IMG/VR virus record: IMGVR_UViG_3300042311_000626 | Coordinates: 1-64,000 of that record | DNA from: a virus | Lineage: Duplodnaviria; Heunggongvirae; Uroviricota; Caudoviricetes | DNA length: 64,000 bases | Reading direction: 5' to 3' (one strand) | Shown: piece after piece, positions 5,117 through 32,676 of the stretch | Layout: each line of letters opens with the position of its first letter | How positions within the stretch are numbered: the stretch's first letter is position 1 | Program-made: the position numbers and the translations under genes | Notes under the pieces: model-generated | Database searches by the model: none | What the model was told of the DNA's origin: nothing | What the model saw: only the letters and a program-made list of their open reading frames with translations

Positions 5117-5117
5117 A

Positions 5118-5348
5118 ATGAAAACAGTAATTAAAATTTTAGCAGGGTTAATACTAGCATTTGGGTTAATCCAATTAACCGATTTAGGTTTGTATTTAAT
5201 GAATCGACCTGACAGTTACCTATTCAACTTAGGTATCATAGTATTAGCTATAGTGGGTGTTGCGTTTGCATTCTTAGGATTATATATGATGAAAGTATTA
5301 AAACCTGAAGAAGTAAAAGAAGAAATTAAACAAGAAAAAGAAGAATAG
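5118..5348 (+). CDS. small membrane protein
   Basis: 76 aa, 2 TM helices, charged C-terminus. Confidence 0.4.
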   Translation: MKTVIKILAGLILAFGLIQLTDLGLYLMNRPDSYLFNLGIIVLAIVGVAFAFLGLYMMKVLKPEEVKEEIKQEKEE

Positions 5349-5350
5349 TT

Positions 5351-5740: not shown

Positions 5741-5782
5741 AACAAAAACACTTAATTATAAATCAAATTTAAAAACCAAGTT

Positions 5783-6610: not shown

Positions 6611-6635
6611 AAAATAATAAAAAACATTTGATTAA

Positions 6636-6661
6636 AGGCTTGCTAACGCGAGCCTTTTTTC
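6636..6661 (+). terminator. rho-independent terminator
   Basis: aggcttgctaacgcgagcc hairpin plus T6. Confidence 0.5.
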
Positions 6662-6687
6662 GTATCTTTATAGCATAGTTTAAAAAA
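6659..6687 (+). promoter_or_regulatory. early promoter motif TTCGTATCTTTATAGCATAGTTTAAAAAA
   Basis: Abuts T-run of terminator 6636-6661; 9 nt before ATG 6696. Confidence 0.5.
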
Positions 6688-6695
6688 TAAAGGTT

Positions 6696-7079
6696 ATGGA
6701 TAAACACACATTACTACAGAAGATCAAATCAGGTAATTACAATCAGCAACAGCTACTAAGTTGGGTAGGATGCTTACCAGGGACTTCAGCAAGTAGAAAG
6801 CCTAAGTTTACTAAAGTAGGAGACATTTATATGCATCCTATATTTCAACATCCATATCTTATCTTGGATAAAAGAGATGGATATTACATCTGCGGATTGA
6901 TTACAAGTGAGAGTAGCTGTCCTGAGATATTAGAAGCATGCAGATCCAGGTTCATGGAAGGGTATATTACAAAGACATTATTTACAGCAAGTGAAATCTC
7001 AGGTAGTTTTATAAACAACTACGACAATACAAGACACTTGAAGAAAGTATTAGTTAAATTAAGAGAAACATTAAAATAG
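6696..7079 (+). CDS. MazF/PemK-like (CcdB/MazF-fold) endoribonuclease-toxin-like protein
   Basis: VGDIYMHPIFQHPYLILD...YICGLITSES parallels PemK/MazF GDIWxVxxxP...RPxLVL...xVxPxTS. Confidence 0.4.
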   Translation: MDKHTLLQKIKSGNYNQQQLLSWVGCLPGTSASRKPKFTKVGDIYMHPIFQHPYLILDKRDGYYICGLITSESSCPEILEACRSRFMEGYITKTLFTASEISGSFINNYDNTRHLKKVLVKLRETLK

Positions 7080-7084
7080 AAGTT

Positions 7085-7318
7085 ATGATAGAGAGAATAG
7101 CAACAGCAATTACAGCCATTATTTTTTTAGGATCTTTAGTAGTAGGGCTTATAACAAGTACTATAGATCTAATCTCAGTAGCTCTTACAGGAAATAGTTT
7201 AACAGGAATACCTATAGAGTTCTTTTTACTTTTAATCGTATGTACACCTCCAATAGCATTAATTACAATCTATTCAGGAGTAGTATTAGATAAAATATTT
7301 AACTTAGAAAATAAATAA
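7085..7318 (+). CDS. small membrane protein
   Basis: 77 aa, 2 TM helices; immediately after the MazF-like gene. Confidence 0.4.
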   Translation: MIERIATAITAIIFLGSLVVGLITSTIDLISVALTGNSLTGIPIEFFLLLIVCTPPIALITIYSGVVLDKIFNLENK

Positions 7319-7321
7319 ATT

Positions 7322-8056
7322 ATGCCAAAAATATTTAAAGTAGGAGGATGCGTCAGAGATGGACTCCTAGGAGTAAAAACAAAAGATATCGACTTCACAT
7401 TTGTATTAGATGATCTAAACAAGACAGTTGAAGAAGGATTCAAAGAGATGGAGCAATGGATGATAGATCAAGGATTTACAATCTTCCTATCCGTTCCAGA
7501 GATGTTTACAATCAGAGCTAAATTTCCAAGTGATCATAAATTTGCTAAATTGGATGCAGACTTTGTAATGGCTAGAAAGGAAGTTAGTTATATTGAAGGA
7601 ACAAGACGTCCAATACTAGAATTAGGAACATTGGGAGATGATTTAGTTCGTAGAGACTTTACAGTCAATGCTATGGCTGAAGATGAGGATGGTAATTTAA
7701 TTGATTTGTTTGACGGTATATGGGCTTTAGAAAGTAAGATGCTTCTCACACCTCTTGAACCAACACAAACGTTTCTAGATGATCCTTTAAGAATGATAAG
7801 AGCACTTAGATTTTCAATCACTAAAGGATTTACAATAGCACCTAAGGTTTGGGCAGCGATGTTTATTCCGACTCTAATTGATAAACTACAACAAGTAGTA
7901 AGTGGTGAGAGAATAAGAGAAGAAATTATAAAGATGATGAAAGTAGATACTGTAGCAACTCTACGATTATTAGCTGAAATTGATAAAATAGAACCTAAAT
8001 TCCTAGAAGCTGTATTTAGTGACGGAATGTGGTTAAAACCAACATTTGAACAATAA
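7322..8056 (+). CDS. CCA tRNA nucleotidyltransferase / poly(A) polymerase family protein (head domain, 244 aa)
   Basis: VGGCVRDGLLGVKTKDIDFTF (GGxVRD...DxD) and RRDFTVNAMA signature motifs. Confidence 0.75.
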   Translation: MPKIFKVGGCVRDGLLGVKTKDIDFTFVLDDLNKTVEEGFKEMEQWMIDQGFTIFLSVPEMFTIRAKFPSDHKFAKLDADFVMARKEVSYIEGTRRPILELGTLGDDLVRRDFTVNAMAEDEDGNLIDLFDGIWALESKMLLTPLEPTQTFLDDPLRMIRALRFSITKGFTIAPKVWAAMFIPTLIDKLQQVVSGERIREEIIKMMKVDTVATLRLLAEIDKIEPKFLEAVFSDGMWLKPTFEQ

Positions 8057-8663
8057 AGTTATGATAAATAATATAGAATTGATTAAGCCATTGCTTAATT
8101 TTGAAAATGAAGGTGACTTTTACATGTTATACGTTTTAAAACGTAAAAAAGATCAACCTGAAGGTGAAAGAGATAATCATCAATCAGTAAGAACACTTCG
8201 TTCATATTGTATCAATTCAATTGAACAATTAGAAAAGAAGTATGACGAGATACAATTGTTATGTGAGACATTTAAAGCAAGAGCTTATATTCACGTTCAA
8301 AAACAAAACCATAAAGATGTTTCTCTAAATATGATGGTTGCTTTAGCACAACGTATACAAGACGGAAACCACCAACAACAATCATTATTTGATTCAGTTG
8401 TAGGTCAATTAAAGACTTATGAAAAGAGATGGATTGTTGATATTGATACTCAAGATGTTGAAGAATTAGTTGAGGTTGCTGAATTTATCTATAATCTTAG
8501 ACCAATTGGACATAAAGTTATAACTACAATTCCAACCAAAAACGGGTTTCATCTGATAACCGAACGATTTGATGTTTTATCTTTTAAAAATAGATATTCA
8601 GATATTGACATTCAAAAGAAAAATCCAACACTACTTTATTTACCAAATAGTTTGGATGATTAA
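8046..8663 (+). CDS. hypothetical protein (205 aa)
   Basis: ORF between nucleotidyltransferase and ligase. Confidence 0.45.
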   Translation: MNNKVMINNIELIKPLLNFENEGDFYMLYVLKRKKDQPEGERDNHQSVRTLRSYCINSIEQLEKKYDEIQLLCETFKARAYIHVQKQNHKDVSLNMMVALAQRIQDGNHQQQSLFDSVVGQLKTYEKRWIVDIDTQDVEELVEVAEFIYNLRPIGHKVITTIPTKNGFHLITERFDVLSFKNRYSDIDIQKKNPTLLYLPNSLDD

Positions 8664-8670
8664 ATTACCA

Positions 8671-8697
8671 TTCGTAATTTTATAGCATAATTTAAAA
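8671..8697 (+). promoter_or_regulatory. early promoter motif TTCGTAATTTTATAGCATAATTTAAAA
   Basis: Consensus copy upstream of ligase gene. Confidence 0.5.
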
Positions 8698-8709
8698 CAA
8701 ATAAAAGTT

Positions 8710-9819
8710 ATGACATTACCAATTTTGTACAAACGTTCAAACAGTAAAGAACACATCAATCAATGGCAAATTGAGGTTGAAGGAAACAAATTCAGAACAA
8801 CTACAGGATTTGTAAATATGAAAATGTTTACAGGTGATTGGACCGAATGTACTCCTAAAAATGTAGGTAAAAAGAACGCTACAACAGCGGAAGAACAAGC
8901 ATTGTTCGAAGCACAAGCACTATGGCAAAAACGTAAAGATTTAGGTTATTGGGAAGACATAAATGATTGTGATAAGAAAGTATTCTTTCAACCTATGTTA
9001 GCTCAAGACTATGACAAACGTAAGGATAAAGTACAGTTCCCAATTTTATCACAACCAAAACTAGACGGAGTAAGATGTATAGTTAAATCAGATGGTATGT
9101 GGACACGAACAGGAAAGGAAATTATATCTGCTCCTCACATATTTGAAGGACTAAAACACGTATTTGAAACACAACCTGATTTAGTATTGGATGGTGAATT
9201 ATATACTTCAAATACAGAAGTAGATTTCAACACAATCATATCATGTGTTAGAAAAACAAAACCAACACAAGCCGATTTAGATTTATCTACTCGATATATT
9301 GAGTATTGGATGTATGACATGTATGAAGGTGAAGATTTAATATATGCTTCAAGACGAGGTAAATTGTTAAGTTTATTTCTTACATATGATATATCAATTC
9401 TTTATTATAAAATTGTTGAAACAACTAATGTAATTTCATTTGAACAGATTAATCTAAAATTACAAGAATATATTGAACAAGGTTTTGAAGGTCAAATGTT
9501 AAGAGATCCAAACACACCTTATGAAAATAAACGTTCAAATGGTTTATTAAAACATAAAACATTCTTTGATGAAGAGTTTACAATAATAGATTATTCCGAA
9601 GGTATAGGTAAATTTAGTGGTAAAGTAGCAACATTAAAAGTAAATGTTAGTGGTGTAGAAGTGGATTGTACCATAAATGGAACGATGGAGTATTTAGAAG
9701 AATTATTTCAAATCAAAGACACATTAATTGGTAAACAAGCAACAGTTAAGTATTTTGAAAAAACGGTAGATGGTTCATTAAGATTTCCAAAAGTAATAGC
9801 GATACGAGATTATGAATAA
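8710..9819 (+). CDS. ATP-dependent DNA ligase with ~100-aa N-terminal extension
   Basis: Motif I KLDGVR, motif III LDGELY, motif IV EGQMLR, motif V LLKHK. Confidence 0.8.
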   Translation: MTLPILYKRSNSKEHINQWQIEVEGNKFRTTTGFVNMKMFTGDWTECTPKNVGKKNATTAEEQALFEAQALWQKRKDLGYWEDINDCDKKVFFQPMLAQDYDKRKDKVQFPILSQPKLDGVRCIVKSDGMWTRTGKEIISAPHIFEGLKHVFETQPDLVLDGELYTSNTEVDFNTIISCVRKTKPTQADLDLSTRYIEYWMYDMYEGEDLIYASRRGKLLSLFLTYDISILYYKIVETTNVISFEQINLKLQEYIEQGFEGQMLRDPNTPYENKRSNGLLKHKTFFDEEFTIIDYSEGIGKFSGKVATLKVNVSGVEVDCTINGTMEYLEELFQIKDTLIGKQATVKYFEKTVDGSLRFPKVIAIRDYE

Positions 9820-9879
9820 AAAATTACAAGAAAGCTTGCGGTACACAACATCAATACAAACATACGTATATACAAGAAT

Positions 9880-10068
9880 ATGAAACGATTATTATACAAC
9901 ATAGCATTTTGGATTGGTTATACAATCGTAATTGAAGATACTCTAATGAGTTGGGAAAAGTGGGAGATAAAAAAATACACTCACATTGTGGTATACAAGT
10001 ATTATGGTAGATTTAAACATGACAATAGCATTAAGTTAAGACGTGTGTGGGCGCTTAAAATAAGATAA
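9880..10068 (+). CDS. hypothetical protein
   Basis: 62-aa ORF; CGTATATACAA motif 5 nt upstream. Confidence 0.3.
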   Translation: MKRLLYNIAFWIGYTIVIEDTLMSWEKWEIKKYTHIVVYKYYGRFKHDNSIKLRRVWALKIR

Positions 10069-10070
10069 AC

Positions 10071-10301
10071 ATGACAGTAGCAGAAGTAATAGAAAAACTA
10101 AGCACTATTGAAAATCAAGACGCCTTAGTGATGACAAGAGGATATGAAGGAGGGTATGATGATATGGATTATGATATTATAGAAACAGATATGGTTCTAA
10201 ATGTAAATTCAGAATGGTATTATGGTAAACATGAAAGAGCAGAAAATGTATATCATGAAGATAGGGAAAAATATGAAATAGTAAAAGCAATTATACTTTA
10301 G
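10071..10301 (+). CDS. hypothetical protein
   Basis: 76-aa acidic ORF. Confidence 0.35.
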   Translation: MTVAEVIEKLSTIENQDALVMTRGYEGGYDDMDYDIIETDMVLNVNSEWYYGKHERAENVYHEDREKYEIVKAIIL

Positions 10302-10321
10302 GTTGGCTTATAGGAATTGTA

Positions 10322-10348
10322 TTCGTAATTTTATAGCATAATTTAAAA
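10322..10348 (+). promoter_or_regulatory. early promoter motif (consensus copy)
   Basis: Identical 27-mer to 8671-8697. Confidence 0.5.
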
Positions 10349-10351
10349 CAA

Positions 10352-10567
10352 ATGGTTATGACAAATTTAGACATTATTGAAAAATTTATTCAAAGTGAAA
10401 TTGATAAGAACAATTCATCTAATGAATATATTTTAGCATTAAATGAGTGTGCAACATTAGAGGACTTAATTTATGAAGTTGATATGTGGAAATCACCAAT
10501 TATAATTGAAAAATATGGAAATGTGGAAAATTATATTTTGATGAGTTTAGATAATTTAAAACAATAA
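10352..10567 (+). CDS. hypothetical protein
   Basis: ORF after early motif; second ATG at 10358 fits the conserved ggttATG context better. Confidence 0.35.
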   Translation: MVMTNLDIIEKFIQSEIDKNNSSNEYILALNECATLEDLIYEVDMWKSPIIIEKYGNVENYILMSLDNLKQ

Positions 10568-10572
10568 AGGTT

Positions 10573-10767
10573 ATGGAAGTAAAAATTAACATCCCAGAAG
10601 GAATCATTCGCACATGTACAAAATGTGGTTGGAATGAAGAACAAACAAGAAAGGTATTTGTTGAGTACTTACAAGAGGTTACTAATCATGTATACAATCA
10701 CTTTGAAATAGGTTTTGATAATTGGATAAATGACGAAGATACTCAGGAATTTTTAGATAACTTATAA
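10573..10767 (+). CDS. hypothetical protein
   Basis: 64-aa ORF. Confidence 0.35.
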   Translation: MEVKINIPEGIIRTCTKCGWNEEQTRKVFVEYLQEVTNHVYNHFEIGFDNWINDEDTQEFLDNL

Positions 10768-10772
10768 AACAA

Positions 10773-10994
10773 ATGGTTATGAGAACAAAACGATCAGAAT
10801 TAGTAGAAGGTAAAAAATATTTCATGAATGGTGAAAGAGACGTCATAGGAGTATTTAAAGGTAGAGATGAAGATTTAAACTCAATTTTCTTTGATTGTGG
10901 TGAACAAAACAAATATTTCACTTCATTATATAGAGAAGGTCTTGTAATGTTTTGGAGTGATGATGATTATGAAGGGTTTGTAGAAGTAAAATAA
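10773..10994 (+). CDS. hypothetical protein
   Basis: 73-aa ORF; alternative start 10779. Confidence 0.35.
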   Translation: MVMRTKRSELVEGKKYFMNGERDVIGVFKGRDEDLNSIFFDCGEQNKYFTSLYREGLVMFWSDDDYEGFVEVK

Positions 10995-10999
10995 GCGTT

Positions 11000-11224
11000 A
11001 TGAAAAGATTAGTCACAATACAAGATGGAGTAATAGGAGGGGTGGAGAAAGAGCTTATAGAGAAATTGCTCCCTCAATTAATAGGATCATTTAGACAACG
11101 TAAAGAATACTTTGAATACTATTTTAATGAAACGGAAGTTGAAATCACCTTAGATGATATTGAGCGTTTATCTAAAGAATTTACTATAGAAATAAATTGG
11201 AGTGAATTAGAAATTTTCATTTAA
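11000..11224 (+). CDS. hypothetical protein
   Basis: 74-aa ORF. Confidence 0.35.
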   Translation: MKRLVTIQDGVIGGVEKELIEKLLPQLIGSFRQRKEYFEYYFNETEVEITLDDIERLSKEFTIEINWSELEIFI

Positions 11225-11235
11225 TAATAAAAGTT

Positions 11236-11601
11236 ATGGCAACACCAAGTAGAATAGGAATCGAGAACGAAAACGGATCAATAACATCAATTTACTGTCA
11301 TTGGGATGGTTATACAGAAGGTGTAGGTGCAATGTTAAAAGAGCATTATTTGAGCACTCAAAAAGTAAGAATGCTACTTAATTTAGGTGATATTAGTATT
11401 TTAGGAGAACAGGTAGCAACTATGGATGAACATACTTTTGATAATCCAAAGCAAGGTGTAACAGTGGCTTATCATAGAGACAGAGGTGAGGAAAAGAATG
11501 AGGCGAGAACGGATGTTTCAATTGAACAATTTAAAAATCGTTTAAGTGATTGTTATGGTTATGTTTATACTAAAGGTGGAAATTGGTTAACAGTAAGATA
11601 A
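11236..11601 (+). CDS. hypothetical protein
   Basis: 121-aa ORF. Confidence 0.4.
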   Translation: MATPSRIGIENENGSITSIYCHWDGYTEGVGAMLKEHYLSTQKVRMLLNLGDISILGEQVATMDEHTFDNPKQGVTVAYHRDRGEEKNEARTDVSIEQFKNRLSDCYGYVYTKGGNWLTVR

Positions 11602-11606
11602 GTGAT

Positions 11607-11894
11607 ATGAAACAGACAGCAGTAGAATGGTTAGCGAATGAGCTATATGAAAAATTTGAAATGAAAGGTGATGGTGCTTTGTTTAATGACTTGTTAAATC
11701 AAGCCAATAAAATGTTTGAGCAACAGATTATTGATGCCTTTGATAATGGTGTAGAAGATGATGGAATTATTGATAATGCAGAACAATACTATAATGAAAC
11801 ATTTGGTAAATCAACTCCGTGGTATGATGAAGATAAGACAACAGAAAGAATGAATATAATAGGACAAAATGGAAATAATGGTGAACACTATTAA
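11607..11894 (+). CDS. hypothetical acidic protein
   Basis: ORF in track from a TTG at 11583; first ATG at 11607 (MKQTAVEW...). Confidence 0.35.
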   Translation: MKQTAVEWLANELYEKFEMKGDGALFNDLLNQANKMFEQQIIDAFDNGVEDDGIIDNAEQYYNETFGKSTPWYDEDKTTERMNIIGQNGNNGEHY

Positions 11895-11928
11895 ATCCAA
11901 AGCACCAAATACATAATCCAGCTAAAAT

Positions 11929-11986
11929 AAAACGTACGACGGAAGAAACGAAACGTACGACGGAATAGAATAATAACGTACGGGCG
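11929..11986 (+). repeat. direct repeats AAACGTACGACGG (x2) plus AACGTACGGGCG
   Basis: Exact 13-mer at 11929 and 11951; related copy 11975; further copies at 12732 (direct) and 13243 (inverted). Confidence 0.7.
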
Positions 11987-12347
11987 AAAGGGCGATTACT
12001 AAATAATAGGAGCTGGGTGCTTCGGGTATGAAATATCGCATTTAAACGCATTGTTTTTTTACCACGGCATTATGTGATTATGGGGAGGTAATGCAAAATT
12101 ACGCGTTTTTTTGCGCAAATAATCGCGATTTTTTTGTTGCTTAAAGGAATAGGTGAGGATGGAAAACAAGGGTTAAGGGTGGAAAACATTACAATATTTT
12201 TTTTGTTGCTTAAAGTTTTTGTACTTAACATGTGGAACGAATGGAGATAATGTGTGATGGAGTTTTGTGACAAGGGAAAAGGTCCCGCCATGCCACGCCC
12301 CGTTTCTCCACTTTCGAAACGTATATACAAAACATAACATAACTACT

Positions 12348-12545
12348 ATGCTATATTACATAAACATTTACGTATTCATTGGCGCCATTGTGTCCGTATT
12401 GGCCATATTAATGAATAATTATTTTGTTAAGTACGACGACGGGACTCCTTTAACCAATAAAGACGTCGTTATAATAATTTTTTTCTGGCCAATATTTCTT
12501 TTGTTCTTGTTTTATTACTTTTTTGTTAAAGATTGGGATAACTAA
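12348..12545 (+). CDS. small membrane protein (65 aa)
   Basis: ATG inside track ORF 12267..12545 where AT-rich codon usage resumes; 2 TM helices. Confidence 0.3.
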   Translation: MLYYINIYVFIGAIVSVLAILMNNYFVKYDDGTPLTNKDVVIIIFFWPIFLLFLFYYFFVKDWDN

Positions 12546-12586
12546 GAATTTTTTTGTACATTCATATAAATAAAAAATTTAAAATT

Positions 12587-12733
12587 ATGATTGTACCTTT
12601 TTGGATTCAAGGCTTAGCATTTGGTGTTTATTATGTTCCGGACGACGACGGAGTAGATTACGACGACGAGACACATATGGTCCAATTGGCGTTAGGTTTT
12701 TTTGGTATATCGTTTATGTGGTGGAACGACTAA
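12587..12733 (+). CDS. small membrane protein (48 aa) with acidic loop
   Basis: MIVPFWIQGLAFGVYYVPDDDGVDYDDE...FFGISFMWW; below track cutoff. Confidence 0.25.
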   Translation: MIVPFWIQGLAFGVYYVPDDDGVDYDDETHMVQLALGFFGISFMWWND

Positions 12734-12852
12734 AACGTACGACGACGAAAGTTTTTTGTCTTTTTTTGCGATAATATTTGGTTGCGTGGTTTTTTGTTAT
12801 TAATTTTATGCCAGAGTTAAAAACATAAACATTAACATTAAAAATCAAGGTT

Positions 12853-13185
12853 ATGACGCGTACAGAAGTATTAGCAAAAGTAAAAGAGTTAGGTATCAAA
12901 ACAGAAAGACCAGCTCATCAGATGAAAACAGAAGCATTAGTTGCTTTAATTCACAAAACAGTTGTGATTGAAGATCACAAAGCACGTGGACGTAAAATCA
13001 ATCCAACGAGCGCTAGACAACAAAGATTAGCTACCCGAGCTATGTTGTTAGAAAATGGTCCAATTCAAAAAGGACGTAAACCGAACTTAACCAGTGCCAG
13101 ACAACAAAGATTGGCTGCATGGGAAGCTAGAAAGGCTGCCGGTGAGGTAATAAAACGAGGCCGTCCAGCAATGGTGGTTGCGTAA
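12853..13185 (+). CDS. HeH/Rho-N (SAP-like) domain DNA-binding protein with tandem basic repeats
   Basis: N-terminal LAKVKELGIKT...MKTEALVALI fits the Rho-N/HeH signature; two GRKxNxTSARQQRLA repeats; strong terminator follows. Confidence 0.5.
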   Translation: MTRTEVLAKVKELGIKTERPAHQMKTEALVALIHKTVVIEDHKARGRKINPTSARQQRLATRAMLLENGPIQKGRKPNLTSARQQRLAAWEARKAAGEVIKRGRPAMVVA

Positions 13186-13207
13186 TTTAATTGTTAAACT
13201 AGGAACT

Positions 13208-13237
13208 GACCCGACAGAAATGTCGGGTCTTTTTTTT
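13208..13237 (+). terminator. rho-independent terminator
   Basis: gacccgaca-gaaa-tgtcgggtc 9-bp stem plus T8. Confidence 0.75.
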
Positions 13238-13428
13238 CCTCCGTCGTACGTTTTATTATTTGGGGACAACTATTTCTAATATCCAAGTTGGTTGTTAATT
13301 TTTTTATTCGTACCTTTATGGGGGGGTCCGTTTTTTTTTTATAAAAACGTTACAACATTTTTTGTTTATCATTTGGATATTGGTTTTTTTGTTTGTATAT
13401 TTACGACGTTAATTAAAACAATAGAGTT

Positions 13429-13680
13429 ATGAGAGTACAAATTAAATCCATCTTCGAGCAAATTGCAGAGCAAGTATTTAAAATGACTGATGCAACTAAA
13501 GCTAAAACGTTCATTACTGAATTCGTTAATGAAAAGAATATTAACGACGACGACAAAAGAACGATCCTAAACAACATAGAGAACCTTAAATCGATTGCCC
13601 AGATCCAGAAATACATCTGTAACTCACTTCTTCAGTATGAGGGGCTAGGTGTTGGTGCTAGAAAGGATCCAAATGAGTGA
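13429..13680 (+). CDS. hypothetical protein; 3' end runs into a GC-rich segment
   Basis: 83-aa ORF; last ~15 codons lie in the GC-rich island 13635-13765. Confidence 0.35.
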   Translation: MRVQIKSIFEQIAEQVFKMTDATKAKTFITEFVNEKNINDDDKRTILNNIENLKSIAQIQKYICNSLLQYEGLGVGARKDPNE

Positions 13681-13948
13681 GCTGGATCATCTGGCCCAGT
13701 GGGAGCAGTTCCTCTGGCTTCAGGGGCTCGATCCGGGGCCTGAAATTGGGAACACCATTTCGTTAGTATGTATGTCGGAAGACATTAAACATTATAATTA
13801 TGAAGACTATCCAAGTAACACTTCAAGAGCGATGGGCTGCTTCTAGGCACCAGATCCACAAGACAAAGAAAACATATACCCGTAAGGATAAACACAAAAA
13901 CAAGAGTCGTAAAGACTCTTCATTTGTCTTTGGTTACCAGAATTATGT

Positions 13949-13975
13949 GTCGTAATTTTATAGCATAGTTAAAAA
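13949..13975 (+). promoter_or_regulatory. early promoter motif
   Basis: gtCGTAATTTTATAGCATAGTTAAAAA upstream of ATG 13993. Confidence 0.45.
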
Positions 13976-13992
13976 CATTAAAAATAAAAGTT

Positions 13993-14238
13993 ATGGCTTA
14001 TAGAGAAACATTTAGAATGAATCAAAGAGATTTTGATGAAGAAAATGAAGAAACAATTAATGACATTAGAAGTTATTTAGTTTACAATTACAATCATGTA
14101 AGTTCAGACCAACTATCAGATGGTTTTATTCTGGAGTTTATGTCCAGAGATTACTTAGTAAGGTTGCCGTTTGAGAGAAAGATGGATTGCCTTTATGATC
14201 ACATTTTGGCTCAAGGTTTATGTGATGTAGAAGAATAG
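13993..14238 (+). CDS. hypothetical protein
   Basis: 81-aa ORF between early motif and terminator. Confidence 0.4.
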   Translation: MAYRETFRMNQRDFDEENEETINDIRSYLVYNYNHVSSDQLSDGFILEFMSRDYLVRLPFERKMDCLYDHILAQGLCDVEE

Positions 14239-14241
14239 ATT

Positions 14242-14262
14242 AAGCGCTTAGGCGCTTTTTTT
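14242..14262 (+). terminator. rho-independent terminator
   Basis: aagcgc-ttag-gcgctt plus T7. Confidence 0.5.
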
Positions 14263-14290
14263 GTCTTTCACTAGGATACCTAAAAAATTT

Positions 14291-14318
14291 TTCGTACCTT
14301 TATACCAAATTTAAATTA
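14291..14318 (+). promoter_or_regulatory. early promoter motif, degenerate
   Basis: TTCGTACCTTTATACCAAATTTAAATTA upstream of the GC-rich ORF. Confidence 0.4.
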
Positions 14319-14326
14319 AAAACAAA

Positions 14327-14887
14327 ATGAAAACATTAGTAATACACCCTAACGATCGATCAACTGATTTTCTTAAGCCGATCTATAACGAGCTAGACGA
14401 TGTTACTCTGGTGACTGGCAACTGGACACGTGGGGAAATAATAGAGGGCATCCAGGCACACGATCAAGTAATGATGATGGGACATGGGAGCCCAGGTGGA
14501 TTGTTTGCTATGGGGCAGTTTTGGCCTCAAGACGTCCTTAGTGCCTATATTATAGGGGCTGACATGGTTGAGGCGTTGAGCCAGAAGGACAACAACATTT
14601 TTATCTGGTGTAATGCCGATCAATTTGTTACTAGACACATGCTGAAGGGGTTTTACACTGGGATGTTTATCTCTGAGACGGGCGAGGCTGCTTATTGTGG
14701 ATTGCCTGGTACACCTCAAGACATGGTGGATGAATCGAACCACGGGTTTGTTAAAATACTTGGCGATGCACTTCAGGGCACCAGAGACACTAGTGTTCTA
14801 TTTGAGCAGACTAGCAACACATACAGCCTAATAGCCGACATTAATCCAGTAGCTAAATACAATCATAATAGACTTTATTTAAGATAG
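14327..14887 (+). CDS. hypothetical protein, compositionally foreign
   Basis: 186-aa ORF with clearly higher GC than neighbours; GHGSPGG and hydrophobic-strand-Cys (IFIWCNAD) elements. Confidence 0.5.
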   Translation: MKTLVIHPNDRSTDFLKPIYNELDDVTLVTGNWTRGEIIEGIQAHDQVMMMGHGSPGGLFAMGQFWPQDVLSAYIIGADMVEALSQKDNNIFIWCNADQFVTRHMLKGFYTGMFISETGEAAYCGLPGTPQDMVDESNHGFVKILGDALQGTRDTSVLFEQTSNTYSLIADINPVAKYNHNRLYLR

Positions 14888-14908
14888 ATTTGGTTGCCTA
14901 AAATATTA

Positions 14909-14937
14909 TTCGTACTTTTATATCAAAGTTTAACAAT
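14909..14937 (+). promoter_or_regulatory. early promoter motif, degenerate
   Basis: TTCGTACTTTTATATCAAAGTTTAACAA. Confidence 0.4.
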
Positions 14938-14952
14938 TAAAATATTCTTATT

Positions 14953-15252
14953 ATGAGTGAAAAAATTAACAGCGACTGTTTATTCCGCCTTGAGGCGAAA
15001 GGTGAAGACATTAGTGCTTCAGTTGAAGGTAAAGCTAGAGATATAGCAGAATTACTTGCTAACGCAGCTATAAATTCAGAAGAAATAAACATGGTTTTAA
15101 AATTTGCTATGTTAATGTTGGCTCAACATGAAATGAACCAAGACGAAGACGAAGACGAAGACCGAATCAGCGAAGAAAGATTCCAAGCTGGTAAAGAAGC
15201 TGCTGTTGACTTAGCTCAGGCATTATTCCCTCTTAAAATGGAGGAAGCATAA
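14953..15252 (+). CDS. acidic hypothetical protein
   Basis: 99 aa with QDEDEDEDR run; flanked by motif and terminator. Confidence 0.45.
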   Translation: MSEKINSDCLFRLEAKGEDISASVEGKARDIAELLANAAINSEEINMVLKFAMLMLAQHEMNQDEDEDEDRISEERFQAGKEAAVDLAQALFPLKMEEA

Positions 15253-15287
15253 GATTTCTCATTATTTATTGTTTTTAATTAGTGAAT

Positions 15288-15315
15288 TGACTCATCAGAA
15301 ATGGTGAGTCTTTTC
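15288..15315 (+). terminator. rho-independent terminator
   Basis: tgactcatc-agaaat-ggtgagtc plus TTTT. Confidence 0.5.
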
Positions 15316-15326
15316 TATTTATCATC

Positions 15327-15545
15327 ATGAAAAAGTTTATATTATATTTGATCACATGGGTAGCAGGCAATCTGTCTATTCCATTCTGGATGGTAGGGCA
15401 CGTCCACCTGACAACTAATGTGTATGAGGACATACATGAGATAATTGCCTCATTCGGGATGAACATTATAGTGGCCCTTGGGTTCTGGCTAGAATGGAAA
15501 AACTACGATGCGGCTACTAAGCCAAATAACGATAAAGACAATTAA
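15327..15545 (+). CDS. small membrane protein
   Basis: 72 aa, 2 TM helices. Confidence 0.4.
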   Translation: MKKFILYLITWVAGNLSIPFWMVGHVHLTTNVYEDIHEIIASFGMNIIVALGFWLEWKNYDAATKPNNDKDN

Positions 15546-15571
15546 ATAATACTTGGTTATACGGTTTATAG

Positions 15572-15598
15572 TTTGTAATTTTATAGCATAATTTAAAA
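15572..15598 (+). promoter_or_regulatory. early promoter motif
   Basis: TTTGTAATTTTATAGCATAATTTAAAA, 11 nt before ATG 15610. Confidence 0.5.
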
Positions 15599-15609
15599 CA
15601 ACAAATAAA

Positions 15610-15777
15610 ATGAGCACATTAAAATTTACAGACGGAGAAACATTTGATTTATCAGGTGAATTAAGAGCCGAAGAGCGTTATGATGGATGGTACGTGTTAG
15701 GTGAAAACCGAATGATACCTGTTAACGACGAGTTTGATGCTTTAAACACAATAGATAAACTTAACGCCCTTAAATAA
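15610..15777 (+). CDS. hypothetical protein (55 aa)
   Basis: ORF 11 nt downstream of early motif 15572-15598; below cutoff. Confidence 0.35.
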   Translation: MSTLKFTDGETFDLSGELRAEERYDGWYVLGENRMIPVNDEFDALNTIDKLNALK

Positions 15778-15778
15778 G

Positions 15779-15964
15779 ATGAATAAGTTACTACTTAGAT
15801 ATAAAAATGAAAACAACAAGCAAGTAGACGTTGTAATGGATCCCAGAGAGCTATCCCATATGGAGTTTATTAAGGGGAACAGAACGTTATATAAGGTATA
15901 TGATGCTGAAGATGAGTTTAATGTTGAATTAGAACGTCTAACTAAATTAAGTAACAGTAATTAA
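15779..15964 (+). CDS. hypothetical protein
   Basis: 61-aa ORF. Confidence 0.35.
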   Translation: MNKLLLRYKNENNKQVDVVMDPRELSHMEFIKGNRTLYKVYDAEDEFNVELERLTKLSNSN

Positions 15965-15991
15965 AAGTAGACGTGTATACGCTACTTACCG

Positions 15992-16018
15992 TTCGTAATT
16001 TTATAGCATAGTTTAACA
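15992..16018 (+). promoter_or_regulatory. early promoter motif
   Basis: TTCGTAATTTTATAGCATAGTTTAACA. Confidence 0.5.
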
Positions 16019-16034
16019 ATTAAAAACATATAAA

Positions 16035-16220
16035 ATGAAAACATTAGACATCTTAATTAAAGTATTATTAGTTACCTTAATGTTATTAAGTGTAATACGA
16101 ATGTTCTTCTACCCTAGTACATTAGAACATTTTGCAATGTGTTGGTTCTTGCTTATGGCATCTGGTGTTGGTGCATTAGCTTACTACAAACAAAGCACCA
16201 AATGGAACCTAAACAAATAA
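16035..16220 (+). CDS. small membrane protein
   Basis: 61 aa, 2 TM helices. Confidence 0.35.
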   Translation: MKTLDILIKVLLVTLMLLSVIRMFFYPSTLEHFAMCWFLLMASGVGALAYYKQSTKWNLNK

Positions 16221-16363
16221 AAGCAATGAATACGATAACACAGACGATAGAGCAAGATGGATTCAGCTGGTTCGAATATAATACAGGATCGATCACATTA
16301 ATCGAATTTTCATTGAGTGAGCTAGTAAAGCGTATAGTAGCCATTAACCCGACGCTAAATTAA
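16202..16363 (+). CDS. hypothetical protein (53 aa)
   Basis: First ATG of the hydrophilic part of track ORF 16139..16363; 19-nt overlap in a different frame. Confidence 0.3.
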   Translation: MEPKQIKAMNTITQTIEQDGFSWFEYNTGSITLIEFSLSELVKRIVAINPTLN

Positions 16364-16439
16364 GCATGTACGGTAGATACTAAACAAACAACAACAACTA
16401 ACATGAGGCGGCCAAAAGGTCGCCTTCCTTAATCTAAAT

Positions 16440-16690
16440 GCATGTGTGCGCGCGCGTGACAAAAAAAGCGGGCAGGGCTCTGGCTTCAGGCGGGTCTGGC
16501 GTGTGTGACAAAAAAGAACACTCTCCTTCAATCTATCGATCCGCTAGCGCTGCGCGCGCGGAGCGACAGCGAAGTGGGCCCACGGTAATTGCGGTCCATC
16601 GACGATGCGACAAAAACGCGCCCGAAGGCCCCGGCTTTACAACAAGACAACAAAATTCACCCCGCGCCCCCCGTATATACAAATATATTG
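16440..16690 (+). other. GC-rich non-coding island (~60% GC in a ~31% GC genome)
   Basis: GTGACAAAAAA / GCGACAAAAAC repeats, (CG)n runs, ends in CGTATATACAA; track ORFs here look spurious. Confidence 0.6.
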
Positions 16691-16835
16691 CAAAATCCAT
16701 TATAACCCATTCGATATAAAATCCAAGACCCCGAAATCTCTCTCTTTAACGATCTTTTTCCCACTTCAAAGCGTATATACGAGAGGTTGGAAACAAGAAA
16801 AAACATTCGTATATTTAGACTTAAATTAAAAAGTT

Positions 16836-17980: not shown

Positions 17981-18454
17981 ATGGGAGAATTTAAACACAT
18001 AACATTAGACGAAGCTAAATCGGATTATTATCCTAAACCCGAAGGAGTAAATTGTTTTTACTCTGATGCTTATACTTTAACACCTGATCCTAATGATCCA
18101 ACTAATGATTATGTACATTATTGGGTAAAGAATAATAAATTTAATGCTTCCTTATCATTTAACGAAGGATACATTTATATTTTGGAGAATAAAGGTCAAC
18201 CTGGTGTGTTGAAAATTGGATATACGGATAGGACGCCACAGGAGAGAGTCCGAGAGATTAACGGGGCAACAGGTGTTATAACACCTTGGTACATAGTTAA
18301 CGCATTCGCATGTAGAGCGCCTTTACAAATTGAATCTTTGATACATAAGAAACTTAAACCATTTCATGTTAATAAAGAAGGATTTGCTGTAACTATACCC
18401 TATGCTGAGGAAACAATTGCTGGTGTTATTTCCGATAATAATGCAAGTATTTAG
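17981..18454 (+). CDS. T5orf172/MUG113-type GIY-YIG-superfamily domain protein
   Basis: GYIYILENKGQPGVLKIGYTDRTPQERVREIN matches the T5orf172 core (YxYxL...KIGxT...R); ATG at 17981 preferred over track start 17945. Confidence 0.5.
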   Translation: MGEFKHITLDEAKSDYYPKPEGVNCFYSDAYTLTPDPNDPTNDYVHYWVKNNKFNASLSFNEGYIYILENKGQPGVLKIGYTDRTPQERVREINGATGVITPWYIVNAFACRAPLQIESLIHKKLKPFHVNKEGFAVTIPYAEETIAGVISDNNASI

Positions 18455-18494
18455 TAATACTAATATATTTATACCTAAATTAATACAACCACAC

Positions 18495-18758
18495 ATGGCT
18501 GAATATTTATTACAAGACAAAGACAAAGCAGCATTTATTAATAAAATGAATAAAGTATTATCTCAATTACAACCAGGATTGGGTGTGGATAATACTAGTT
18601 TTGTTGATGTACCTGAAAATAAAGATGATGATAAATGCATTTTTGTAACAGGTGATCCTGTAGAGGAGAAAGTGTTAGATCAACTTATTGATCAAAAGAC
18701 TTTTAATTTTAGAGTTAAGAAAATTAGTTTAAAAGAAATATTACAATCAATAAAATAA
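18495..18758 (+). CDS. hypothetical protein
   Basis: MAEYLLQDKDK...; in-frame internal ATG of track ORF 18402..18758. Confidence 0.35.
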   Translation: MAEYLLQDKDKAAFINKMNKVLSQLQPGLGVDNTSFVDVPENKDDDKCIFVTGDPVEEKVLDQLIDQKTFNFRVKKISLKEILQSIK

Positions 18759-19361: not shown

Positions 19362-19393
19362 TCTTAAAAATTAATTAAATCTTAAAAATATGA

Positions 19394-19420
19394 CCCGCCC
19401 CTAAAAAGGCGGGTTTTTTT
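19394..19420 (+). terminator. rho-independent terminator
   Basis: cccgcc-cctaaaaa-ggcggg plus T7. Confidence 0.7.
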
Positions 19421-19507
19421 GTCCTTCACCATCTTATATATATGTATCTATTGATAGCGGTATGAAATGCATTACTTTTAAAGAAAACTTGGCTACCGCC
19501 TTCCCCA

Positions 19508-19540
19508 TTCGTATAATACATTATAACTATAAAATTTAAA
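19508..19540 (+). promoter_or_regulatory. early promoter motif, degenerate
   Basis: TTCGTATAATACATTATAACTATAAAATTTAAA before ATG 19545. Confidence 0.35.
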
Positions 19541-19544
19541 CAAG

Positions 19545-19730
19545 ATGAAATACAAAACACAAGCCCTTAAGAAAATTGAGAAAATTGAGCACAAAGTTGC
19601 TGCTTTAGAAAGTGCTATTAGCCGTAATGAAGACAGAAGTGTTATCGCTGGTGCCTTTAGAGACATGAGAGAAGCTGTAGCAAGTTTAAGAGATACTATC
19701 TCTATTGAAAACGACGAAATGAATTATTAA
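19545..19730 (+). CDS. hypothetical coiled-coil protein
   Basis: 61-aa ORF after a degenerate early motif. Confidence 0.4.
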   Translation: MKYKTQALKKIEKIEHKVAALESAISRNEDRSVIAGAFRDMREAVASLRDTISIENDEMNY

Positions 19731-19731: not shown

Positions 19732-20013
19732 ATGACAACATTTGTAATTATTTTAATTAGTATCGTCCTTATTTTAGGATATATTTCTTACAATTTATTT
19801 AAAAAAGTTGAACAATTAGAAAGGATAGTAGATTCTCAAGAACAATACATATCTAAATTTTCTAATACAGTAGATTTTACTAATAAACGATTAGGAGAAA
19901 TTGATGAAAAAGGAACATTTCAATCCGATGACGAAATAGGATGGTTTTTTGAGAGTGTAAAGACATTACAGAGTGAATTAGATGATTTTAATTTGAATGG
20001 AGTTAGAAGATAA
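19732..20013 (+). CDS. membrane-anchored hypothetical protein
   Basis: N-terminal TM helix, 93 aa. Confidence 0.4.
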   Translation: MTTFVIILISIVLILGYISYNLFKKVEQLERIVDSQEQYISKFSNTVDFTNKRLGEIDEKGTFQSDDEIGWFFESVKTLQSELDDFNLNGVRR

Positions 20014-20752
20014 TGTAATAACGGTCGAGCTTACCAAGTCTGGTAAGCCCCGTAAACGTAAACCCAAAACATCTCACACATACTTTACTGAAGACACTCA
20101 GAATGCTATTGTAGAATATGTAGCATCTCAGGATCAAAAATTTAGAGATAAAGTTTATCGTGAACGTATTGAGTATGGATTTTTTAAATTGACTCAAAAC
20201 ATCATTCACACTTTTAAATTTTACTATACTGATGGTGAATCTGTTGAAGATGTACAACAAGAAGTAATTGCTTTTTTACTTGAAAAACTTAAATTATACA
20301 AACCTGCTAAAGGTAAGGCATATTCCTATTTTGGAACTATAGCTAAACGTTATTTAATTTTAAAGAATAAGAAAAACTATCAAAAACTTCAAGATAAAGG
20401 AGATTTATTAGAGATTGAAGAAGATAAAACTATACGAGAAGAAATAATAAATGACCATTATGGACAAGACTATAGTGTAAGTGAATTTATGTCTTTATAT
20501 ACTCGTTATGTAGATAAAAATCTTCATAAATTGTTTCCTAAAGAAATAGATGCTAAAACAGCAGATGCCGTAGTTGAATTATTCCGTAAATGTGAATCAT
20601 TGGATATATTTAACAAAAAAGCATTATACATCTATATTCGTGAAATGATAGACGTAGATACTCCTCAAATTACTAAAATTATTAAAAAATTAAAAGTTAT
20701 ATACATTGATTTATATAATAGATATTATGAAGATAATTACATCAATGTGTAA
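19997..20752 (+). CDS. putative late-transcription sigma factor (T4 gp55-like, sigma-70 region-2-like only)
   Basis: ESVEDVQQEVIAFLLEKLKLYKPAKGKAYSYFGTIAKRYLILKNKKN parallels T4 gp55 and sigma region 2; sits just upstream of the late module. Confidence 0.5.
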   Translation: MELEDNVITVELTKSGKPRKRKPKTSHTYFTEDTQNAIVEYVASQDQKFRDKVYRERIEYGFFKLTQNIIHTFKFYYTDGESVEDVQQEVIAFLLEKLKLYKPAKGKAYSYFGTIAKRYLILKNKKNYQKLQDKGDLLEIEEDKTIREEIINDHYGQDYSVSEFMSLYTRYVDKNLHKLFPKEIDAKTADAVVELFRKCESLDIFNKKALYIYIREMIDVDTPQITKIIKKLKVIYIDLYNRYYEDNYINV

Positions 20753-20767
20753 TTTTTGTTAATTTTT

Positions 20768-20776
20768 ATATTTATA
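20768..20776 (+). promoter_or_regulatory. late-type motif ATATTTATA(A)
   Basis: 15 nt upstream of first late gene; recurrent in late intergenic regions. Confidence 0.4.
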
Positions 20777-20791
20777 ATAAAATAAATTTAT

Positions 20792-21148
20792 ATGGATTTT
20801 GATAAAACTATATGGGGTAATAAAAAATTCTCCGATTTGTTAAAAGATATTTATGCCAATTCTAAAGAAAAGGAAAAACAAATCAAAGAATTAATAGGTA
20901 CTCTAAAACCATTTATTACAGATAACCATTCTGCTCTTACTATAGTTCCATTAATTGCAAATTACCTTAACATTAGTGTTAAGAATGATGAGCAACTAAT
21001 TAAATTAGCTAGTATAGTTCAACGTGCTGCTTCTTTAGGTGAAGGAGATAGCATTGGTGGTTTTATATTAAGTGAAGCCGAAAAAGAACAACTATTTTCC
21101 GCCGTAAATGAAATAGGAAATGAAGTAGAAGGACCTTCTAAAGAATAA
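20792..21148 (+). CDS. hypothetical protein (first gene with late-type upstream motif)
   Basis: 118-aa ORF, ATATTTATA 15 nt upstream. Confidence 0.45.
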   Translation: MDFDKTIWGNKKFSDLLKDIYANSKEKEKQIKELIGTLKPFITDNHSALTIVPLIANYLNISVKNDEQLIKLASIVQRAASLGEGDSIGGFILSEAEKEQLFSAVNEIGNEVEGPSKE

Positions 21149-22354: not shown

Positions 22355-23658
22355 TGGCTGAAGTTACTAACCAGGATAAAATAAAAGCAGCTAAAAAATC
22401 ACTTGATGAATCTAAAAAATTATATCAAGATGCTGAGAGACAATATGCTAAAGCCGAAGCACTTTATAATAAAGCTAAAGTACAAGCTAATGCTATTAAA
22501 TCTTTAGTACCCTCTGCTCCCTCCCTTAATGTAAGCTCACCAGAAGCTATTGCTGCCTTAGGTACTGCTGCTATAACCGCATTAGCTGCTAATATAACAC
22601 CTGAACAACGAGCAAAAACTATTAATGATAGAAAGGAAGCTCTTAGAAAATTAGAAAGAAAAGCAGAACAAGAATTAGAAAAAGCTAAAGCTGCTATTGC
22701 GGGTGCTCAAAAACGTATTGAAGTACTTCAAGAACAAATTGGAGTATTAACAACACAACGCTCATTAAAAGAAAAAAAAGACAAACAACAAATTAAAGAT
22801 AAAGTTAAAGTAGCAAAAGATACTAAAAAAATAAAAACAAATAAAGCTAAAATTAAAAAAGCCTTAACACAAATAATAAAATCATCAGGACCGGCTGCTA
22901 TTACATTGGTTTTTGGTAGAATACTAAGTAATCAGGTTAATAAATTAGCTCAAACTATTTCTAAATTAAATGAATTAGTAAATAAAACTAATGAAATAAT
23001 TACAAATGCTACAACTAAAGCAGATATAGAAAAAGCAAGAGTAGCTAGAGACGCAGCTTTAGTTTCATTAAGATCTGCTGAGGATCAGGTTAATAATTTT
23101 AATAGAACACTTAGATCTATAAGTACTACTTTAACAATATTGACATTAACAGTATCTGTATTAACAGCTATTCCATACACACCATATCAGATATCACCTA
23201 TTGGTATTAAAACAACAAGAACAATAGCAAAATACGCACCTATAATAATATCTCTTAATATACTATTACAAATTGCAATAGGAACTTTAAATAGATTTAA
23301 ATCAACTATTCAATATGAACGTTCTAGATTACTTCCTTTAAATAAAGTACTAGATGATGCTGCTACTAATGATTTAACTCCTCAAGAAGTAAGAGATTTA
23401 TTAGATGCTTCTGGTACTGGTTTAGATGGTGGTGGTTTAGGTCCTGTACTTGGAGTTGAATATAATGGATTTACATTCTCTATATTAGAAGAAGATGATC
23501 CTAGATTTGTAGTAGCTGGTAATAAACGAAGATATGCTGTTGCCTTAGACAGAAGTGGATTTATAGCTCTACAATCTGAACCGTCCTTTACATTAGATCC
23601 TGAGGTTCTAATTGAGGAATTAAGATTAGAAATTGACAAACGAAGACTTGAAGCTTAA
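22354..23658 (+). CDS. coiled-coil structural protein with hydrophobic segments (tape-measure-like?)
   Basis: Ala/Lys/Glu coiled-coil N-half, TM-like TILTLTVSVLTAIPY and IIISLNILLQIAIG, Gly-rich C-terminal part. Confidence 0.4.
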   Translation: MAEVTNQDKIKAAKKSLDESKKLYQDAERQYAKAEALYNKAKVQANAIKSLVPSAPSLNVSSPEAIAALGTAAITALAANITPEQRAKTINDRKEALRKLERKAEQELEKAKAAIAGAQKRIEVLQEQIGVLTTQRSLKEKKDKQQIKDKVKVAKDTKKIKTNKAKIKKALTQIIKSSGPAAITLVFGRILSNQVNKLAQTISKLNELVNKTNEIITNATTKADIEKARVARDAALVSLRSAEDQVNNFNRTLRSISTTLTILTLTVSVLTAIPYTPYQISPIGIKTTRTIAKYAPIIISLNILLQIAIGTLNRFKSTIQYERSRLLPLNKVLDDAATNDLTPQEVRDLLDASGTGLDGGGLGPVLGVEYNGFTFSILEEDDPRFVVAGNKRRYAVALDRSGFIALQSEPSFTLDPEVLIEELRLEIDKRRLEA

Positions 23659-23669
23659 TATTTATTGAC

Positions 23670-26266: not shown

Positions 26267-26275
26267 ATATTTATA
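26267..26275 (+). promoter_or_regulatory. late-type motif ATATTTATAA
   Basis: 17 nt upstream of ATG 26293. Confidence 0.4.
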
Positions 26276-32667: not shown

Positions 32668-32676
32668 ATATTTATA
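32668..32676 (+). promoter_or_regulatory. late-type motif ATATTTATAA
   Basis: 16 nt upstream of ATG 32693. Confidence 0.4.

Follow-up and report, generated by a model that had tools for sequence, protein, structure and literature searches.

Phage-encoded sigma factors are textbook material for T4, SPO1 and phiEco32. Here we describe a candidate of this kind in a 64,000-nucleotide stretch of a tailed phage genome (IMG/VR record IMGVR_UViG_3300042311_000626, positions 1 to 64,000; hereafter the window). The system consists of ORF251, a 251-residue protein encoded by the open reading frame (ORF) 19997..20752, and of the 9-mer ATATTTATA, which recurs before virion genes. In T4, gp55 is a phage sigma that redirects the host polymerase to late promoters (PMC2988020), and the middle and late promoters of phiEco32 gp36 are made of a single 9-bp element, tAATGTAtA, without a -35 box (PMC8948821). 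Phage sigma factors have hardly been recorded for phages of Bacteroidetes, among which a VOG-based survey found only two with a phage-encoded sigma (bioRxiv 10.1101/2021.11.12.468384). Our favored reading, which we rate somewhat above an even chance, is that a phage sigma made from a host-type promoter redirects the host core polymerase to late promoters built on the single element ATATTTAT(A/T).

The closest working analogue of ORF251 is gp36 of phiEco32, a Kuravirus of Escherichia coli, and the analogy is functional. Both proteins are phage-encoded, about 210 to 250 residues long and highly diverged members of the sigma-70 family that score weakly against ECF-type models, and the late motif of the window fits the description of a gp36-type promoter (i.e., one element of about 9 bp near -10, no -35 box, placed before late genes). 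The two systems differ in that hhalign relates the proteins with a probability of 4%, which is not significant, the motifs are dissimilar, and transcription starts 6 to 8 bp downstream of the gp36 element versus about 4 in the window. Furthermore, gp36 serves in another host phylum with another polymerase, and works with a cofactor, gp79, for which no counterpart accompanying ORF251 was identified.

ORF251 and its family

19997..20752, + strand: sigma-70-family protein of 251 residues, assigned by its Pfam Sigma70_r2 match

The initial annotation, made from the letters of the window alone, had placed a 251-residue ORF at exactly these coordinates and had pointed to a sigma region 2-like segment, which lies inside the match of Pfam Sigma70_r2 (PF04542) to residues 73-121 (E 1.7e-5; 24.9 bits against a cutoff of 24). 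The same domain was detected in 20 of 21 aligned relatives (best E 9.8e-8), and Sigma70_r4 of Pfam in none of the 21 family members. Weak NCBIfam matches of ORF251 are to sigma families only (sigma70-ECF, sigmaE, SigK), all under cutoff, with 17.9 bits for TIGR02937 (cutoff 42.9) and less for the others, and a PHROGs search yielded only a marginal sigma match (phrog_1740, E 0.32). Sequence searches of the PDB with ORF251 and with the family profile returned neither a sigma nor gp55, so that fold comparison alone was informative there. The AlphaFold model (pLDDT 74) consists of two helical domains separated by a disordered linker, giving a layout of basic N-terminal tail (KSGKPRKRKPK), sigma-2 domain (approximately 32-134), linker (135-157) and a C-terminal domain resembling a helix-turn-helix (HTH; 158-246). 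All 50 Foldseek matches listed against the PDB are sigma-factor entries, with weak E-values; the N-terminal domain shows the three-dimensional fold of sigma-2, with T4 gp55 as its best structural match, and the phiEco32 sigma (9m7y_F) is among the structural matches of the C-terminal domain. Judged by its sequence, ORF251 is a true member of the sigma-70 family.

The most conserved stretch of the protein, G106-Y128 (KAYSYFGTIAKRYLILKNKKNY), is the equivalent of regions 2.3/2.4. This block comprises 14 of the 60 invariant columns of the family and remains conserved at 36% overall identity, in step with the invariance of the DNA motif described below. Of 8,000 candidates scored (clusters at 90% identity), 7,937 match at E <= 0.001, so that this large family has at least 7,900 such metagenomic clusters, on contigs of up to 169 kb. 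Every source name listed for these proteins is "hypothetical protein". ORF251 is thus an unannotated and highly abundant addition to the known class of phage-encoded sigma factors. A further near-invariant stretch, the basic and AT-hook-like TKxGKPRKRKPK, maps to the disordered N terminus (residues 12-26; window positions 20030-20075), and could make contact with AT-rich DNA on the upstream side of that promoter element.

Cellular ECF sigmas (group 4) share with ORF251 its size, an apparent two-domain layout, the region 2 match and the weak NCBIfam matches, and a small membrane protein is encoded beside ORF251 as is the case with anti-sigma factors. Unlike them, ORF251 stays under every NCBIfam cutoff and lacks a Sigma70_r4 match and a bipartite -35 AAC/-10 CGT promoter, and its membrane protein gene is upstream and overlapping, without an anti-sigma domain signature.

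The window has a G+C content of 28-36% and about 97 ORF calls, all except two on the + strand. Small ORFs fill its first ~17 kb. The DNA past 20.8 kb encodes a baseplate wedge protein, unknown proteins of very large size, the large terminase (start at 54535) and the portal protein (start at 56140). Mixed among these late genes, at 38.6-52.4 kb, are those for a primase, an exonuclease, the exonuclease subunit of a DNA polymerase and a dehydrogenase. In a megablast search with 20 kb of the window, no near-identical phage turned up among the known phages of GenBank. By similarity of ORF251, the closest cultured relative is Flavobacterium phage vB_FspM_immuto (160 kb, 42% identity; hereafter immuto), followed by "Microcystis" phage Mel-JY01 and a 484-kb uncultured phage. 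The gene order of immuto matches that of the window, i.e., small ORFs, a small overlapping ORF, the sigma homologue gp118 and the baseplate module. In our favored reading, the source of the window is an uncultured myovirus of the immuto-like group, with Flavobacteria-type Bacteroidetes as hosts.

The late 9-mer as a probable promoter element

The 9-mer occurs 12 times in the window, always on the + strand, for analytic expectations of ~3.4 (+) and ~3 (-). Whether this number exceeds that expected from AT composition, a point raised by the initial annotation, depends on scope. Over both strands, 12 copies versus 6.9 +/- 2.7 expected are unremarkable by themselves, and enrichment is seen only after stratifying by strand and by spacer. 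Ten copies fall within 2,119 nt of late-region noncoding DNA (spacers after 20.75 kb), where a Markov model trained on those same spacers expects 0.2-0.4 and where 10 copies were never reached in 2,000 simulations per Markov order (orders 0, 1 and 2). Early noncoding DNA (2,955 nt, equally AT-rich) contains no exact copy. Variants with one mismatch have no strand bias, either in coding DNA (34 on + versus 32 on -) or in spacers (10 versus 11), and hence it is the exact word that counts, with the exception of ATATTTATT (23658 and 3525), which is interchangeable with the 9-mer in relatives. The copies and the late variant are the following.

18465..18473, + strand: 9-mer within 18402..18758, the ORF call at its longest; an in-frame ATG, 18495 (MAEYLL...), follows after 21 nt
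20768..20776, + strand: 9-mer, 15 nt before ATG 20792 (first gene of the baseplate module)
23658..23666, + strand: variant ATATTTATT, overlapping the preceding stop, 3 nt (gac) before ATG 23670; leaderless mRNA predicted
26267..26275, + strand: 9-mer, 17 nt before ATG 26293, past the baseplate wedge gene
32668..32676, + strand: 9-mer, 16 nt before ATG 32693
40424..40432, + strand: 9-mer, intergenic, 22 nt before ATG 40455
43265..43273, + strand: 9-mer inside ORF 43082..43345, 64 nt before ATG 43338
48307..48315, + strand: 9-mer overlapping the stop codon of the gene before it, 14 nt ahead of ATG 48330
50231..50239, + strand: 9-mer right behind the preceding stop codon, 23 nt before ATG 50263
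53318..53326, + strand: 9-mer overlapping the stop codon of the gene before it, 25 nt ahead of ATG 53352
54513..54521, + strand: 9-mer past a hairpin; the ATG of the large terminase gene (54535) comes 13 nt later
56128..56136, + strand: 9-mer right behind the stop codon of the terminase gene, with 3 nt between it and ATG 56140 of the portal gene; leaderless mRNA predicted
58010..58018, + strand: 9-mer past the portal gene; the next long ORF (58114) follows after 95 nt

All nine copies listed in the initial annotation are present, including that before the terminase gene, which reads ATATTTATATATAAATG as it had stated; three were missed (40424, 18465 and 43265). Its distances of 3-25 nt to an ATG hold for the listed copies other than 58010, and of its two related forms, that at 23658 is conserved in relatives and that at 37028 is only loosely similar. 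The proposed absence of the motif from early cassettes is correct for the exact 9-mer in spacers, not for ATATTTATT at 3525. Nor does the motif begin with the gene next to the sigma gene. The copy at 18465 is probably intergenic and promoter-positioned, which puts the first motif ~1.5 kb upstream of the sigma gene, and relatives carry ATATTTATAcccagca at -950 to -1750 from the sigma start. The clean early/late boundary drawn at the sigma gene is also lost in many relatives, where the motif precedes the sigma operon and upstream genes too. The 43265 copy is possibly an internal promoter, or there by chance. These two "coding" copies share an identical 15-mer, ATATTTATACCTAAA (18465-18479 and 43265-43279); at the former position, ATATTTATAcccagca is found in close relatives. 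Just 5' of the 18465 copy, 17981-18454 encodes a protein with a T5orf172/MUG113 domain (Pfam E 9e-15), and immuto has a protein of this type, gp123, in a comparable neighborhood.

Conservation in relatives is strong. The complete immuto genome has 16 copies of the 9-mer on the + strand and one on the - strand (~4.6 expected per strand), located directly upstream of gp117 (the gene after sigma) and of the tail spike, terminase, tail sheath, tail tube and baseplate hub genes, among others; its placement before the terminase gene is as in the window, and ATATTTAT is also found at the spot orthologous to 20768. A metagenomic comparison set of 80 loci, with sigma identities of 52-84%, provided 74 distinct spacers between the sigma gene and the next one. 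ATATTTAT is present in 73 of them, followed by A in 36, T in 36 and G in one; the remaining spacer reads CTATTTAT, and the flanks vary freely among the 74. Relatives also keep orthologous sites at +3.5 to +3.7 kb (cf. 23658) and at +6.2 kb (cf. 26267). In Mel-JY01 the motif is only partly present, as TGATATTTATG overlapping the next start and as two spacer sites reading cATATTTATT.

A search for a -35/-33 partner of the late motif, in 24 sites and subsequently in 90 nonredundant ones downstream of the sigma gene, found no conserved element; all that showed was a faint A/T pattern (~0.3 bit) between -17 and -10, which was left uninterpreted. Of these 90 sites, 79 have an A 4 nt past the 9-mer. 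Over 197 nonredundant sites, the spacing between the 9-mer and the ATG that opens the next ORF is sharply bimodal:

3 nt: 23 sites, a count that overstates independent events, many being orthologues of a few genes
4 nt: 8 sites
5-9 nt: 6 sites in total
10-25 nt: a broad peak

The 3-nt spacing persists although the flanks diverge. A fixed start site that allows leaderless mRNAs predicts such bimodal spacing, and the spacing statistics suggest a start at the A 4 nt past the 9-mer, which would then span ~-12 to -4. With that start, the ATG is either the 5' end itself (23658/23670 and 56128/56140) or lies at least ~7 nt further on. The recurrent arrangement ATATTTAT(A/T)-NNN-ATG (23658-23672, 56128-56142 and 31 sites in related loci) implies leaderless late mRNAs, a class that makes up ~5.5% of the transcripts of Flavobacterium psychrophilum (PMC9723704).

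The early genes have promoters of another class.

2005..16818, + strand: 16 copies of the early promoter T[CT]GTAnnTTTA(T), often extended to TAGCATAaTTTAAAA
50998, 52359, 53093 and 54509, + strand: further early-type boxes

The early pattern T[CT]GTAnnTTTA(T)(AGCATAaTTTAAAA) occurs 20 times on the + strand versus 3 on the - strand, typically with a TTGG ~17 nt upstream, and TTG is found in the -33 window of 16 of 20 early sites versus 5 of 15 late ones (Fisher p = 0.013). This class is the promoter type of the Bacteroidetes primary sigma, -33 TTTG/-7 TAnnTTTG. A generic E. coli-type promoter scan found no enrichment in the window (48 versus 48.2 expected) and is uninformative here. In the "late" half, terminator hairpins and early-type boxes serve the polymerase-exonuclease, the dehydrogenase and the next unit (49391-49450, 50998 and 52359), none of which has the 9-mer. 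The class of promoter thus goes with what a gene does and not with where it maps. The late 9-mer resembles the Bacteroidetes promoter in its position (~-12 to -4 versus -12 to -5 for the Flavobacterium -7 box TAnnTTTG) and its T-rich core (PMC9723704), and presumably occupies the place of the host -7 box. It departs from that box in having no conserved 5' T, no -33 box, fixed bases at "nn" and an end in AT(A/T) instead of TG.

The late 9-mer is thus a real, strand-specific, intergenic and phylogenetically conserved signal before virion genes, separate from the early class, and very likely marks single-element late promoters before virion and packaging genes.

The sigma operon and the proposed late switch

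The gene for ORF251 is the last of three in a putative operon.

19392..19415, + strand: intrinsic-terminator-like hairpin and T run, ending the transcription unit before the sigma operon
19489..19517, + strand: promoter-like site for the sigma operon, TTGGCT-17-TATAAT within ...cTTGGctaccgccttccccaTTCGTATAATACA
19545..19730, + strand: first gene, 61-residue helical protein (ORF map)
19732..20013, + strand: second gene, 93-residue protein with a hydrophobic, transmembrane-like N-terminal stretch, conserved partner of the sigma gene

The promoter-like site lacks the late 9-mer and carries a TTGG of the -33 type, as in the early class. The first gene product has only a sub-threshold Pfam match, and the sigma operon of relatives begins likewise, with MRYKNN/MKYKNN. 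The 3' end of the second gene overlaps the sigma start by 17 nt, which suggests that the two are translationally coupled; this overlapping arrangement recurs in immuto (gp119) and Mel-JY01, and the motif IDExGxFxSDDEVGxFF is common to these proteins. The 93-residue protein has no Pfam match and no known anti-sigma domain signature, and could be an anti-sigma-like or localizing partner.

In the switch that we propose, host RNA polymerase with its primary sigma would read the early genes (1-17 kb and the scattered replication genes) from promoters of the -33 TTGG/-7 TAnnTTTA type, and the host-type promoter at ~19489-19517 would drive the three-gene operon ending in the phage sigma. This protein would displace the host sigma on the core polymerase, and its region 2.3/2.4-like block, G106...Y128, would recognize the single element ATATTTAT(A/T) at ~-12 to -4 without a -35/-33 partner. 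Transcription would begin at the A four bases past the 9-mer, giving leaders of ~7-22 nt; the mRNAs of several genes (that at 23670 and the portal gene, 56140) would be leaderless. That ORF251, and not another factor, reads the motif is suggested by the co-occurrence of the two, their conserved adjacency and the analogy with known systems.

Several observations weigh against this reading. Across relatives, motif density is about the same upstream and downstream of the sigma gene (0.32 versus 0.34 per kb), and in the group at ~61% identity the motif directly precedes the sigma operon. Either the sigma is autoregulated, with help from read-through, or an earlier-made factor or the host sigma reads at least some copies. 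The 9-mer also overlaps the early -7 box in sequence (GTATATTTA(T) is a legal early box), and the exact word occurs in early-looking promoters of some relatives, with cgtATATTTATA, a legal host-type box, in certain promoters of the ~61% group; the two classes are therefore not cleanly separable by the 9-mer alone. Several genes preceded by the motif have no known function. ATATTTAT is absent near the sigma homologue of the 484-kb megaphage (LR756508.1, 15001-15702; 36% identical to ORF251), a copy with an in-frame stop inside its tblastn match that may be degenerate or read differently. Finally, the C-terminal domain of ORF251 resembles a DNA-binding HTH, yet a second promoter element is not seen.

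In a rival reading, the motif is a promoter that the host sigma-A holoenzyme would read as a -7 box variant lacking the -33 element, perhaps with help from another phage activator, DNA modification or replication, and the regulon of ORF251 would be different or narrower. The 9-mer and the early TAnnTTTAT box have TTTATA and their position in common; with a leading T, present at 5 of the 10 window spacer sites, the 9-mer becomes TATATTTA, which fits TAnnTTTA; relatives place cgtATATTTATA before small early-looking genes and the sigma operon itself; and the 7-deazaguanine DNA-modification genes of immuto-type phages could affect promoter use. However, the T of the host "TA" is not kept, the base before the motif being C in 36, T in 30, A in 5 and G in 2 cases, the free "nn" positions of the host box are invariant in the late motif, and the -33 TTG is much scarcer at late than at early sites. 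It would also leave without a target the sigma gene that heads the module, which is dedicated and highly conserved. We regard reading by the host sigma as unlikely, though not negligible. Action of the 9-mer in RNA, as a translation-initiation enhancer or a processing site instead of a promoter, is highly improbable. The 9-mer is indeed strand-specific, intergenic and near start codons, and Bacteroidetes mRNAs lack Shine-Dalgarno sequences and rely on A/U-rich leaders (PMC6847099). Against such a role, its spacing to the ATG is bimodal (3-4 or 10-25 nt) and not fixed, some copies are 64-95 nt from the next ATG, early spacers do without it although their genes need translation too, and near-invariance of a 9-nt element, at protein identities of 52-84%, is a more usual property of protein-DNA sites.

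The initial annotation had read the locus as a T4-style late switch with ORF251 in the role of gp55. A true switch of this kind, with a gp55 orthologue consisting of sigma-2 only and needing a gp33-like coactivator and a DNA-loaded sliding clamp that couples late transcription to replication, is very unlikely. The likeness to T4 is real at the promoters, where a single AT-rich -10-type element related to the host -10/-7 box, without a -35 box, is what such a switch expects, and where many late promoters are packed right behind the preceding stop codon. A small helical protein (19545..19730) is also cotranscribed with the sigma, and the C terminus of ORF251, ...DLYNRYYEDNYINV, superficially recalls that of gp55. 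These last residues (...YYEDNYINV, against ...LDFLYEAND in gp55) are, however, in or next to the predicted helix 222-246 and form no free tail. Homology to gp55 was not borne out, good as the structural intuition behind it was: hhalign of the family profile against gp55 recovered the register first proposed with a probability of only 1% (E 0.057 in a single comparison), and BLASTP gave nothing significant (E 0.28). The proteins also differ in that gp55 scores 13.1 bits on Sigma70_r2 versus 24.9 for ORF251, the more canonical sigma, and in that gp55 is sigma-2 only with a clamp-binding tail, whereas ORF251 has a second folded domain at 158-246. The annotation of the complete immuto genome, not all of whose proteins were searched with profiles, lists no gp33-like protein, gp45 clamp or clamp loader; the replication genes of immuto encode PolA, DnaB, primase and a thioredoxin-domain protein. 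The T4 late sequence TATAAATA is not enriched in the window (18 found versus 21.9 expected), and 12 of the 18 are reverse complements of the 9-mer. Equating the late motif with the T4 core TATAAAT was likewise rejected, since the one copy of that core, before the terminase gene, is a by-product of ATATTTATA followed by TATAAATG. What endures of the earlier proposal is a sigma and, very likely, single-element late promoters; the T4 mechanism is unlikely, given the lack of gp55-level homology, the extra domain, the absence of an evident clamp-binding tail, the unannotated clamp and the different motif.

The switch read from ORF251 is of a familiar kind, here in a little-studied and very abundant group of phages. 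Naming the family, together with a near-invariant 8- to 9-bp promoter and a predicted start, would enable early/late gene annotation in many aquatic Flavobacteria phages, and the system lends itself to direct tests of how the unusual Bacteroidetes -7 box comes to be re-specified by a sigma. Standard genetic tools perform poorly in Bacteroidetes (PMC9723704), for which the promoter and sigma pair is a candidate orthogonal expression tool. A bolder extension, which we consider doubtful, is that the sigma and the overlapping membrane protein constitute a phage sigma/anti-sigma-like timing module for the Bacteroidetes RNA polymerase, in which the sigma is restrained or localized by its partner and self-amplified from its own ATATTTATA promoter in many relatives, the promoters of the regulon are a re-specified host "-7 box", and several late genes, including that of the portal, are leaderless. 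If true, this would make it the first phage sigma system to be worked out for the transcription machinery of Bacteroidetes, and one common to thousands of aquatic phage genomes.

Other features of the window and of relatives

Neither tRNA genes nor Rfam families were detected in the window. Positions 11895-13430 form a gene-poor region of ~1.5 kb with higher G+C and few short ORF calls (48-110 residues). It contains repeats of AAACGTACGACGG, direct at 11925, 11946 and 12728 and inverted at 13230-13257, an exact 18-nt repeat, TTTTTTTGTTGCTTAAAG, at 12129 and 12198, and palindromes, and is possibly a replication origin or another cis-acting region.

In Mel-JY01 (PP395634.1), spacers within 1799-12030 have textbook Bacteroidetes promoters, GTTCTTGCAT...TAnnTTTGTA, and the G+C content is 32%. 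Both features are odd for a cyanobacterial host, and the recorded host may deserve a second look.

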